From: a virus
Lineage: Duplodnaviria; Caudoviricetes
Virus record (IMG/VR): IMGVR_UViG_2706795240_000001
Coordinates: 13,780 to 77,779 of that record
DNA length: 64,000 nt
Reading direction: 5' to 3' (one strand)
The translations under genes were made by a program, and so were the position numbers. The first letter of the stretch is position 1; every line of letters starts with the position of its first letter. The notes below the pieces were generated by a model. It had not been told where the DNA came from and made no database searches. It saw only the letters and a list, made by a program, of their open reading frames with translations. Shown one piece after another: positions 13,234 through 32,291 of the stretch.

Positions 13234-14973
13234 ATGCCTTACCCGCCGAATCGCCTTATTGAAGAGGCATTTCTCGCTCCAACCGTCGAAGTTATTCGAC
13301 GGGTCGAGATTTACGAGTACGACGGCGAGACGCCCTGGAAACCTGAATTGTGGCCTTACATCCTGGTCGGAGGAAATGTTAATGTTTCCTCCGACCAGGA
13401 TTCTCGGCGTTCTGCCGATTTTGAATTCTACAATGAGGGCGGGGAACTCACACCAGAGGCCGGTAAATTCTGGTACGATAAAATCATTAAAGCCTATTAC
13501 GGTATCGTGACTCACAAGGAAAACGAGGGTCGCGAACCTAGCATTATTATTATCGAAGAAGAGTCGGCACTTAATCAGGGCGTCATGCTTAAAAAGCTGC
13601 TGTCCGAGGCTGGCGTTCATTTCGTAGAATACAACCCATTGATTGATACGCTGGCGGAAGTACAGGATTACGATATTCTCGTGTCCATCAGCGGAGACTA
13701 CACGCGTAAATTGCCGCTGTTGACCGCTGCATACACTGCCGGTAAGTCGGTCCTGACGTTTGGCCTTAACTCAACCGCTGCCCAACTACCCCTGTTGATC
13801 ACCAGCACCTCAGCGGTGCGATCTGGGGACGATGCGCGGCACTTCGAGAACGCGGGGGCCGCCGACCCGGCGTCGGCAGGCTGGGACTCGTGGAATGTGG
13901 CCACGCCGGGGAGCTATCGGCCCATCGTGGCCACGCCGGGGGTCACGGTCGCGCTGGAGCAGCGTAATTCGTTCGGACTTGGGGCGGTACTTCGCGAGGG
14001 CGCAGAAACCGGCGTATGGATTCATACGCAAATGGCCAAGTTCGATAATTCAGTGTTCGCCGATCCTTCTGATCGCGAAGGCTTTATCGAGTATCTTGCA
14101 GCCATTGTTAATCGGGCAGACACGTACGATATTGAGAAGAACTGGGAAGCACAGGTTGGCGAATTCATCCCCGAGGCAATCTCGGACGGTGGAGACGTAA
14201 TCACGAATACAATCACGGTTACGGCCAGGGATTATGCAAAGCGTTGCCAGAGCAGCAAGCTGGCTAAGGCAACTCTTTTTCCCGCCGATCAGAGCATCAT
14301 TGAGATCATCAAGGCTCTGGCGAATAACTCGAACGTATTCAAGACCAGGTTGCCAGAGACGCTGAATATCAAGCTCGGCAAGGACACGACCTATGAACGG
14401 GACCAGGATAGATGGACCGTAATGAAGGAAATTGCCGTTGCGAACAATATGGATTTGTGGTTTGACAACGAGGGCTATCTCCGTCTTACGCCACAGAATG
14501 ATCCGTTGTTGACTCCGGCTACACTTCAATTAACAACCGGTGATCGAGGAAACTTGATTTCTCGTGGCAGGAAAACTTCTGATGCCGGACTGTTCAATCA
14601 TGTGACAGTAGTTGGCGAAAGCTCCGACAAGAGTGTTCCTCTGGTTTTTGGTGAGGCGGCGAATAATGATCCGCTGTCGCCAAGTTCAATTCAGAGAATT
14701 GGTTGGCGAACAAAGAACATTTCTTCTCCGCTTATTACTAGCGATCAGCAGGCGCAGGAGATTGCGAATACTATGCTATCGGTCTCGTCGCTAGAGGAAT
14801 TTGAACTCGACTTTTCGAGCATTCTTTTCCCGTGGGTAGAGGCTGGCGAAATTCTAGAAATGAACGAAGACATTGCAGGCTGGGCACCGGCGAGGTATTT
14901 GATTACATCGTTGACCCTGCCTTTTGATCTTTCTCCGATGACGGGAACAGGAAAGCGGGTGACCAAGCTATGA
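13234..14973 (+). CDS. Minor tail protein (hub/baseplate-like)
   Basis: 579 aa in the tail module. The C-terminal half has the DRWTVMKEIA...WFDNEG and NHVTVVGE pattern of siphophage hub proteins. Confidence 0.75.
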   Translation: MPYPPNRLIEEAFLAPTVEVIRRVEIYEYDGETPWKPELWPYILVGGNVNVSSDQDSRRSADFEFYNEGGELTPEAGKFWYDKIIKAYYGIVTHKENEGREPSIIIIEEESALNQGVMLKKLLSEAGVHFVEYNPLIDTLAEVQDYDILVSISGDYTRKLPLLTAAYTAGKSVLTFGLNSTAAQLPLLITSTSAVRSGDDARHFENAGAADPASAGWDSWNVATPGSYRPIVATPGVTVALEQRNSFGLGAVLREGAETGVWIHTQMAKFDNSVFADPSDREGFIEYLAAIVNRADTYDIEKNWEAQVGEFIPEAISDGGDVITNTITVTARDYAKRCQSSKLAKATLFPADQSIIEIIKALANNSNVFKTRLPETLNIKLGKDTTYERDQDRWTVMKEIAVANNMDLWFDNEGYLRLTPQNDPLLTPATLQLTTGDRGNLISRGRKTSDAGLFNHVTVVGESSDKSVPLVFGEAANNDPLSPSSIQRIGWRTKNISSPLITSDQQAQEIANTMLSVSSLEEFELDFSSILFPWVEAGEILEMNEDIAGWAPARYLITSLTLPFDLSPMTGTGKRVTKL

Positions 14974-30830: not shown

Positions 30831-30983
30831 TTATCTCCATTCCAGTTTTACGCATCCGGAATTCTTCTTGGCCTTGATCGCCGCAACAAGTGCGGCTGCA
30901 AGGTATTTACCGAAGTAAACCTGCTTGTACCCGTACTCGCCGTTTTCCTTGACCCATGCGCTAACTTCCCACTTGTACCCCAT
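30831..30983 (-). CDS. Hypothetical protein, 50 aa
   Basis: Read manually: MGYKWEVSAWVKENGEY...; TAATG coupling. Confidence 0.6.
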   Translation of the reverse strand: MGYKWEVSAWVKENGEYGYKQVYFGKYLAAALVAAIKAKKNSGCVKLEWR

Positions 30984-31192
30984 TATCGAATCCCAAGAAC
31001 TTCACGGGCCGCAGACGCGGGACTCTGGCCGAAATCGTCTTCGTCAACCAGCGCCATATGCGCGGCGACTTTTTCATTCAGCTTTTCGACACTCGGTGCG
31101 TTGACTTCGATTTCAAACTTACCGCCGTTGCTTTTCTTGATGACCTTAATGACTGCCTTATATCCGGAATCATCCCGGTAAACGTTTCCCAT
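30983..31192 (-). CDS. Hypothetical protein
   Basis: ATG 31192 lies just after the WhiB stop; the longer ORF-track start overlaps WhiB. Confidence 0.6.
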   Translation of the reverse strand: MGNVYRDDSGYKAVIKVIKKSNGGKFEIEVNAPSVEKLNEKVAAHMALVDEDDFGQSPASAAREVLGIR

Positions 31193-31193
31193 T

Positions 31194-31406
31194 TTATTTA
31201 GCCTTTCCAGCCCATATTCCGTGTTTCGATCCTGTGACATTTCTGTAGTCGTCACACTCGTCAAAGACGGGGCACGATCCACATATTTCTTTGGCTATCC
31301 TTCTCAGGTCCGATCTGCCTTTTCCGGGAAAGAACAGGTCGTCCTCGTCGGCGCTAGCCGGACCAGAACCTGCACATGCCGCGTCACGTTTCCATGACTC
31401 GTCCAT
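31194..31406 (-). CDS. whiB: WhiB-family transcription factor
   Basis: W..DAAC...FFP...AKEICGSCPVFDEC...GIWAG: four Cys plus a G[IV]WxG turn. Confidence 0.9.
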   Translation of the reverse strand: MDESWKRDAACAGSGPASADEDDLFFPGKGRSDLRRIAKEICGSCPVFDECDDYRNVTGSKHGIWAGKAK

Positions 31407-31444
31407 TATGAAGAATCCGGCCCTTCCTTCGCCTTCGGGTTTTT

Positions 31445-31726
31445 CTAGCCCTTCTCCGCAGACGCATTCTTTGTTGACGGAACCAGTGGGGAGATCGGCG
31501 GCGTCAATGGTGACTTTTCTCCACCAGTAGAGTCCATGCGGTCCGCACTCTTTATGGGTGACGACAATTGGCTCTGATCGTCTGGCGAGTCGTTTACAGA
31601 CTCCGGTACAGATGAGCCTTTTGGGGCCTCATCATTGCTCCGAATAGTGAAGTCCTTAAAGTTTTCGTCTGACTTATCTGTATCGGCTGGGCCGACGAAG
31701 CTGACTGGATTAAGTTCCTTGACCAT
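31445..31726 (-). CDS. Hypothetical protein; possible N-terminal part of a frameshifted WhiB fusion
   Basis: ATG 31726 with strong RBS TAAGGA; the sequence after residue 36 is S/P-rich and low in complexity. Confidence 0.55.
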   Translation of the reverse strand: MVKELNPVSFVGPADTDKSDENFKDFTIRSNDEAPKGSSVPESVNDSPDDQSQLSSPIKSADRMDSTGGEKSPLTPPISPLVPSTKNASAEKG

Positions 31727-31736
31727 GTTTAATTCC

Positions 31737-32291
31737 TTACCACTTATTTGAAACGTTGACTGTGCCACTTGCTTGAATTGCTCGTTGCTCTTCGTATGCT
31801 TTAAGGACTTCGATTCTCACGTCTGGCGAGACATGATTTGCCCAATTATCTGAACCGACTCCACCGGAAACCGTTTCCAGTTTTCCACGAGCAATAATAA
31901 TGATCATCGGCTCAGTCTCAACAGACTGCTCAATTTGTGTGGTCTTGACTGCGATATTAGTTCGGTCGTCTTCCCACGTAACACCAGTTAGAGCGTCCTC
32001 GATTAGCTTCTGCATATTGGTCGCGTCGACAATATTCTTTGTCCGAGTGCGATTTGCTTTATCTTTGTACTGGTCCCGCCGTCGCCACGTTAGAATCTCT
32101 AGCGAGTGACCAGGCTCCATAATAAAGCCGCCCTGCTCAATAGCCTGTTCTCTAACGGCCTCCTTGAATGCGGCTCCAGCGGCGTCTACACCGGCAACCG
32201 GGATGGTTTTCCCACCCTTTCTGATCGCAGAAAATGGTGGCACTGTCCACGGGAGCGGGTTGATCGGAATCGCAAAAATCTGAGTGATCAT
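31737..32291 (-). CDS. rusA: RusA-like Holliday junction resolvase
   Basis: DATNMQKLIEDALTGVTWEDD (D..N..K...D.L......DD). Confidence 0.85.
   Translation of the reverse strand: MITQIFAIPINPLPWTVPPFSAIRKGGKTIPVAGVDAAGAAFKEAVREQAIEQGGFIMEPGHSLEILTWRRRDQYKDKANRTRTKNIVDATNMQKLIEDALTGVTWEDDRTNIAVKTTQIEQSVETEPMIIIIARGKLETVSGGVGSDNWANHVSPDVRIEVLKAYEEQRAIQASGTVNVSNKW

Follow-up and report, generated by a model that had tools for sequence, protein, structure and literature searches.

A WhiB-type regulator gene of Gordonia phages and their relatives that is probably read through a programmed -1 ribosomal frameshift

The window analysed here is a stretch of 64,000 nucleotides of tailed-phage DNA (Duplodnaviria; Caudoviricetes), positions 13,780 to 77,779 of IMG/VR record IMGVR_UViG_2706795240_000001. 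It contains a locus in which a short ORF (the 0 frame) is overlapped by an open -1 frame that runs into a WhiB-like (Wbl) domain. Every feature of this two-frame gene lies on the minus strand, as listed below.

31734..31739, minus strand: Shine-Dalgarno (SD) sequence TAAGGA of the 0-frame ORF, read directly; lies 7 nt from the ATG at 31726 and overlaps the stop codon of RusA
31619..31726, minus strand: 0-frame leader of 36 codons, Met to Lys, common to both predicted products; conserved N-terminal motif
31638..31641, minus strand: SD-like GGAG, 12 nt 5' of the heptamer; candidate 5' stimulator, weak in the window phage
31630-31627, minus strand: second SD-like stretch, GAGG, upstream of the heptamer
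31619..31625, minus strand: putative slippery heptamer C_CCA_AAA, X_XXY_YYZ in the 0 frame; read directly and conserved in 19 lineages
31407..31619, minus strand: -1 frame linker of 71 codons; four invariant Cys, dN/dS, no start codon
31194..31406, minus strand: WhiB (Wbl) domain including the stop codon, in the same -1 frame as the linker; matches to Pfam PF02467 and PDB WhiB chains
31445..31618, minus strand: 0-frame tail past the heptamer, 57 low-complexity codons rich in S, P, D and E, followed by TAG; C-terminus of the predicted 93-aa non-shifted product
31570..31618, minus strand: imperfect hairpin, present in the predicted fold; not significant and not conserved

The 0 frame starts at the ATG at 31726-31724, reads ...GAG GCC CCA AAA GGC at the heptamer and stops at the TAG at 31447-31445. 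The -1 frame has two TGA codons just 5' of the heptamer (31634-31632 and 31631-31629), contains no ATG, GTG or TTG for 72 codons up to the WhiB ATG at 31406, and stops at 31196-31194. The first -1 codon of the linker is AGG, in which the A at 31619 is read again. An initial annotation, made from the sequence alone, had already proposed a programmed -1 frameshift at this locus. The ATG at 31726 with its ribosome binding site, the heptamer at 31625-31619 and the TGA opening the -1 frame, all reported in it, match base for base, and the sequence agrees with its description of 72 -1 codons without a start leading into the WhiB ATG and of an S/P-rich tail in the 0 frame. The predicted fusion is, as it stated, 177 aa long (36 + 141), and the non-shifted product would have 93 aa. 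Its remark that only a distant purine run precedes the WhiB ATG also holds: the only purine run near this codon, GAAGGAAGGG, ends approximately 15 nt upstream and is too distant for a normal SD sequence. A scan for promoters and terminators around the gene gave nothing beyond chance.

The C-terminal part of the -1 frame product could be assigned to a known family. Pfam family WhiB (PF02467) matched residues 79-141 with 46.5 bits (cut-off 23.6, E 5.4e-12), and the Wbl signature in the window, C-X30-C-X2-C-X5-C plus GIWAG, is invariant in the alignments. The PDB WhiB chains 8dy7, 5oay, 6ono and 8cwr matched the domain (E 1.6e-13), and the C-terminal 66 residues matched solved chains of WhiB, WhiB1, WhiB3, WhiB4 and WhiB7. 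These matches identify the C-terminal 66 residues as a standard Wbl domain; binding of a [4Fe-4S] cluster and of region 4 of sigma-A is predicted from family membership only.

Among deposited phages, DNA and tblastn searches recovered this region from Gordonia phages Jumbo, Gmala1/GordTnk2/GordDuk1, the Orchid group and Camerico, in all of which the two-frame gene has a RusA-like resolvase on one side and a RecB/Cas4-type exonuclease on the other. Six further lineages (L013-L018) were picked up by scanning metagenome contigs for the pattern. When one of these six was used as a tblastn query, 126 phage records matched, of which 45 span the whole query from its first residue; phages of Rhodococcus and Tsukamurella were among the matches. 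With the linker and WhiB domain of phage Monty as the query, at least 80% was covered from residue 1 in 114 phage records, and Mycobacterium phages matched the WhiB domain only. Eight more lineages were taken (Mbo2, Kvothe, TIN2, GTE7, ReqiDocB7, Reynauld, Perlina and Monty), giving a sample of 19 lineages from Gordonia, Rhodococcus and Tsukamurella phages and metagenome contigs, with protein identities among relatives down to 40%. Judged from these matches, more than 100 sequenced actinophages have the arrangement, and their public annotations do not show it.

None of the relatives has the two frames joined in one continuous ORF. A profile of the linker, compared with 1.84 billion representative proteins, gave nothing credible as a continuous or stand-alone linker protein; the sole match was a dockerin protein, which was rejected as a relative. 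A scan of 185,579 prokaryote genomes for the linker found nothing.

A heptamer of the X_XXY_YYZ type, in the same register with the 0 frame, was present in 19 of the 19 lineages, which are related to each other, so that this and the other counts of 19 out of 19 do not represent 19 independent events. The heptamer is C_CCA_AAA in 15 lineages and C_CCT_TTA in four (Kvothe, TIN2, GTE7 and Monty), and it coincides exactly with the point where the conserved -1 frame protein begins. The two-frame layout was likewise found in all sampled lineages; conservation of the heptamer and of the frame relationship, suggested as a check in the initial annotation, was thus confirmed. The switch from one heptamer to the other changes residues in both frames (Pro-Lys/Arg to Pro-Leu or Pro-Phe/Arg) and retains the tandem-slippage pattern. 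At the synonymous sites of the -1 frame, Pro is encoded by CCC (19/19), the next codon is AAA (15/15) or TTT (4/4), and the following Arg is encoded by AGR (19/19). The corresponding shares of these codons in their codon families, counted in the long ORFs of the window, are 16% for CCC, 22% for AAA and 20% for AGR, and the invariant Cys, Gly and Thr a few codons 3' of the heptamer are each encoded by two to four synonymous codons.

On the 5' side of the heptamer, the -1 frame shows no conservation. A -1 frame TGA occurs at most three codons 5' of the heptamer in 10 of the 15 C_CCA_AAA lineages, often within NNU_GAC_CCA_AAA, and it is doubled (TGA TGA) in the window. It may reflect 0-frame Asp/Glu codons, or it may stop ribosomes that have shifted too early.

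The 0-frame leader is conserved as well. All sampled lineages share the motif (N/Q)P(V/I)xF, followed some 10-20 residues on by DF(R/T)P(K/R), and in all of them this conserved motif ends at the heptamer. With the leader conserved in the 0 frame and the linker in the -1 frame, both halves of the predicted fusion are conserved and the change of frame falls exactly at the heptamer. The 0-frame ORF belongs to PHROG family phrog_14812. In the C_CCT_TTA lineages the leader is longer by about 50-60 residues and carries three or four copies of (K/Q)TAF(Q/E) (QTAFQ, QTAFS, KTAFE), as seen in TIN2 (L021 268-513), GTE7 (L022 280-513), Monty (L026 417-677) and Kvothe (L020 265-513); these copies may be a repeated short linear motif.

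Selection on the linker was assessed from gap-free comparisons of two pairs of lineages. Differences at the first, second and third -1 codon positions were 0.32, 0.18 and 0.45 between the window and Jumbo, and 0.20, 0.18 and 0.42 between Orchid and L013. This pattern matches that of the non-overlapped WhiB domain, and in terms of the 0 frame variation is greatest at second codon positions. The dN/dS of the linker (Nei-Gojobori, NG86) was 0.16-0.67 in the -1 frame versus 1.06-1.84 in the 0 frame. Together, the dN/dS values and the third-position peak argue that the linker is translated in the -1 frame; they indicate purifying selection in that frame only, and the 0-frame tail appears to be free of protein-level constraint. 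Selection to hold the 0-frame tail open was considered and rejected, as synonymous resampling of the -1 frame gave P values of 0.11-0.58 per lineage. The length of the tail is explained by the amino-acid make-up of the -1 frame, and its openness is no evidence of function.

The linker varies from 30 to 100 residues across lineages and contains four invariant cysteines, arranged as CTGxC directly 3' of the shift site and CxCGEG further on (CxxxC as the second pair in L018). The spacer between the two pairs ranges from about 19 to about 70 residues, which suggests that the pairs close a putative metal site around a variable loop; a zinc-ribbon or zinc-knuckle type of Cys4 site was considered for it. 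No relatives of the linker were found in Pfam, PHROGs, PDB sequences or the ESM Atlas. An AlphaFold2 model of the -1 frame product had a pLDDT of 58.6 overall and below 50 in the linker, and lends the presumed linker fold and metal binding no support. What speaks for the metal-binding domain proposed in the initial annotation is its four invariant cysteines; family, structure and Atlas searches returned no match to it, and the AlphaFold model is unreliable there.

Start codons are scarce in the -1 frame. The linker has none in the window, Jumbo, the Gmala1 group, Camerico, L014-L018 and most other lineages, and in the Orchid group the sole start codon is a GTG in mid-linker. Selection against start codons in the linker was also considered; the probability of finding no start was 0.13-0.33 per lineage, which is uninformative alone. 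The WhiB domain opens with an ATG in the window, Jumbo and the Gmala1 group alone; Kvothe carries GTG at this position, and in ReqiDocB7, Perlina and Reynauld an ATG precedes the first WhiB cysteine by a few residues. In at least 11 lineages (Camerico, L013-L018, Mbo2, TIN2, GTE7 and Monty) no start codon occurs up to and including the position of that cysteine, so that WhiB is reachable only from the upstream ORF there, and the domain is consequently unannotated or mis-started in such records. It is absent from the annotation of Orchid, Camerico, Gibbles, TIN2 and GTE7 (L005, L007, L008, L021 and L022), is started at an ATG past the first cluster cysteine in the Mbo2 record (L019 783-986), and is started at a GTG inside the Cys4 linker in the RobinSparkles record (L006 948-1232). 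In the window phage, Jumbo and the Gmala1 group a 70-aa WhiB protein might additionally be started at its own ATG, for which no SD sequence is placed; given this ATG, the fusion is not strictly required for making WhiB in the window phage.

Elements that could stimulate a shift were sought on both sides of the heptamer. The initial annotation had pointed to an extended imperfect hairpin directly 3' of it. This hairpin (31618-31570) was reproduced as the minimum free energy (MFE) fold, but 48 of 200 dinucleotide shuffles folded as well or better (z -0.60), and it is not conserved in relatives. It begins 0 nt past the heptamer, versus the 5-9 nt spacing of a typical 3' stimulator. RNAalifold found four weak pairs in the consensus 3' structure of 11 sequences, no pairs in that of the 15 C_CCA_AAA sequences, and an unsupported structure of -2.5 kcal/mol in the four C_CCT_TTA sequences. 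The hairpin was ruled out as a stimulator on account of its unexceptional fold and the lack of conserved structure. A 3' stimulatory structure is not needed in every bacterial -1 frameshift.

Upstream pairing of SD-like mRNA sequences to rRNA is among the known -1 frameshift stimulators, as in dnaX and IS911 (PMC5009743). We measured such anti-SD pairing as the strength with which the 22 nt preceding the heptamer pair with the 3' end of 16S rRNA. Its mean over the 19 lineages was -8.5 kcal/mol, versus -3.8 kcal/mol (sd 2.6) for background segments from these loci. A mean as low as -8.5 did not occur in any of 20000 random draws of 19 segments, and 17 of the 19 lineages fell in the lowest fifth of the background. 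The pairing in the window itself, by GGAG, was -5.8 kcal/mol, which corresponds to the 19th background percentile. Spacing between the SD-like stretch and the heptamer ranged from 0 to 14 nt, and the local peptide, which is rich in E and G, may contribute to the enrichment. The enriched SD-like stretch, and not a 3' structure, is thus a candidate stimulator of the slip. Given the absence of a conserved 3' structure and the weak SD-like match in the window, the efficiency of the shift could be low.

The arrangement is best read as one gene in two frames, in which a programmed -1 ribosomal frameshift would yield a 177-aa fusion of leader, linker and WhiB; we give this reading a probability of about 0.88. 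The locus combines a heptamer in register, a selected -1 ORF without independent access and conservation at synonymous sites, which are features of X_XXY_YYZ frameshifts, and tandem slippage of ribosomes is compatible with everything observed at it. In the proposed mechanism, ribosomes would initiate at the ATG at 31726 and read the 36 leader codons. Some of them would then slip back by one base, with tRNA-Pro on CCA and tRNA-Lys on AAA re-pairing to CCC and AAA, and go on through the 71-codon Cys4 linker and the WhiB domain. The product of the slip would have 177 aa and comprise the leader peptide, the Cys4 linker and the Wbl [4Fe-4S] transcription-factor domain. Without the slip, ribosomes would make the 93-aa protein, with the same leader followed by a disordered S/P-rich tail. 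Both products would share a partner through the leader motif, and the 93-aa product may, by analogy with OrfA and OrfAB of the IS3 family, compete for this partner, which is speculation.

The four alternatives that we considered account for part of the data each. If the only products were those of two separate genes of the ordinary kind, one for the 93-aa protein and one for a 70-aa WhiB with its start at the ATG at 31406, the open, start-less -1 frame between them would be incidental or would be conserved for a reason at the RNA level. In its favour, public records annotate the region in this way, the WhiB domain does begin with an ATG in the window, Jumbo and the Gmala1 group, and the 0-frame ORF corresponds to an established PHROG family. 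The two-gene reading is nevertheless improbable, as the linker is under purifying selection in the -1 frame and not in the 0 frame and keeps its four cysteines, at least 11 lineages have no WhiB start codon, the WhiB ATG of the window has no SD sequence at a working distance, and there is no conserved RNA structure that could explain the conservation. Internal initiation would make use of the SD-like stretch as a real ribosome binding site, from which the linker and WhiB would be started at a non-canonical -1 codon. The enrichment of SD-like sequences 0-14 nt 5' of the heptamer would fit this, but there is no conserved near-cognate start: the fifth -1 codon is ATC, ATA, GTC or GTT and is deleted in the C_CCT_TTA group. 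Internal initiation also leaves unexplained both the invariant synonymous sites (CCC-AAA-A or CCC-TTT-A) and the ending of the 0-frame leader motif exactly at the site, and we consider it very improbable.

Slippage of RNA polymerase on the CCCC or the AAAA, leaving the transcript one base short, would lead to a near-identical protein, and comparison alone cannot fully separate it from slippage of the ribosome at a site where two short homopolymers occur. In bacteria, the polymerase is known to slip on stretches of about 9 A or T (PMC5009743), whereas the runs here are of 4 and 4, or of 3 U in the C_CCT_TTA variant. Moreover, the lineages conserve the X_XXY_YYZ register with the 0 frame, a property relevant to re-pairing of tRNAs and not to a polymerase. 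The heptamer with its register, the selection on the -1 frame, the lack of an alternative way into the linker and the missing WhiB starts all come out of the sequence comparison; we infer from it that the ribosome is the agent of the slip, and regard a polymerase as a quite improbable one. An error of sequencing, or a recent homopolymer frameshift mutation that split a continuous gene, would be most at home at a site such as CCCCAAAA, which is a typical place for indel errors. The same two-frame layout recurs, however, in 19 independently sequenced lineages that have diverged to 40% protein identity, and no continuous version was found either in these lineages or among the 1.84 billion representatives. 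Sequencing error is therefore excluded for practical purposes. A programmed ribosomal frameshift, as put forward in the initial annotation, is strongly supported by the heptamer, the synonymous sites, the selection on the -1 frame and the absence of WhiB starts in relatives.

Programmed -1 frameshifting at such a heptamer is a well-known kind of recoding, found here in an unusual gene class. The closest parallel in organisation is the IS3 family (IS911, IS150), in which OrfA and OrfAB, like the two products predicted here, are a short ORF and a longer fusion with a common N-terminus and an X_XXY_YYZ-type heptamer in the overlap. In both systems the downstream frame is largely without an efficient start of its own, and the products are, or here would be, nucleic-acid-related regulatory proteins in a set ratio. 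The genes are unrelated, and the IS3 heptamer is A_AAA_AAG instead of C_CCA_AAA or C_CCT_TTA. IS911 uses an elaborate 3' structure, whereas none is conserved in the WhiB phages, and the 0-frame tail of the latter is, unlike in the IS3 family, long and apparently unselected. The tau/gamma frameshift of E. coli dnaX resembles the proposed one in its tandem slippage with tRNA-Lys in the A site, its upstream SD-like stimulator and the common N-terminus of its products. It differs in that the shifted ribosome stops after one codon and so makes the shorter product, and in that a 3' stem-loop is needed; in the WhiB phages the shift would give the longer, domain-bearing product.

Among tailed phages, the G/GT tail assembly chaperones (lambda, actinophages) are likewise a conserved -1 frameshift that was recognised mainly by comparative genomics. 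G/GT is a structural or assembly gene, in contrast to the WhiB gene, an early-region transcription regulator. To our knowledge, it is the only frameshift routinely annotated in these phage genomes, and conserved frameshifts in phage genes outside the tail-chaperone genes have rarely been recognised. The same C_CCA_AAA heptamer is reportedly used in Lactobacillus phage A2. In this phage, -1 frameshifting takes place in the genes of capsid and tail proteins (PMC5009743). Unlike here, the A2 frameshifts concern structural proteins that receive a C-terminal extension, and a 3' structure has been reported for them. The Wbl proteins that we know of (Streptomyces WhiB, M. tuberculosis WhiB1-7 and WhiB of mycobacteriophage TM4) are small single-ORF proteins. 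The phage domain resembles them by its sequence, the arrangement of its cysteines and its G(I/V)W(G/A)G turn, but the predicted fusion differs in having a leader peptide and a Cys4 linker without detectable relatives, which would be reached by recoding. Full-text searches of the literature found no report of a frameshift in a WhiB-type or other phage transcription regulator, and a comprehensive 2016 review of recoding (PMC5009743) contains no such case and does not mention WhiB.

If the frameshift is real, more than 100 deposited genomes of Gordonia, Rhodococcus and Tsukamurella phages carry a WhiB gene that is mis-annotated or missing. The real product would be more than twice the annotated size and have a second cysteine cluster, which changes what should be cloned when phage WhiB function is tested. 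It would also represent a natural bacterial -1 signal that apparently works without a 3' structure in high-GC actinobacteria, in which recoding signals have, as far as we know, been little studied.

The G + C content of the window (51%) is well below that of Gordonia hosts, and ARAGORN detected no tRNA genes in the 64 kb. In the codon usage of the window AAG exceeds AAA by 3.6 to 1, and of the Leu codons TTA is used least (21 of 1173). UUA is the bldA-type codon of actinobacteria. It is conceivable, though doubtful, that the slip site acts as a sensor and not as a device for a fixed ratio: an A-site codon that is rare in the high-GC hosts (AAA or UUA) would tie the shift to the tRNA supply or growth state of the host and so balance the full regulator (leader, second metal centre and Wbl) against a decoy made up of the leader and a disordered tail, which would compete for the partner.

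Two observations concern existing gene names. In many of these phages, including Kvothe, TIN2, GTE7 and Monty, RefSeq calls the 0-frame leader ORF an 'endonuclease', and the GenBank originals call it a 'hypothetical protein'. The former name looks like an error of automatic propagation, as the sequence offers no support for a nuclease. Finally, a small gene at 30983-31192 on the minus strand starts one base past the WhiB stop codon; its counterpart in GordDuk1 is named 'ferritin-related protein' in RefSeq, which is of possible interest beside a predicted iron-sulfur regulator.
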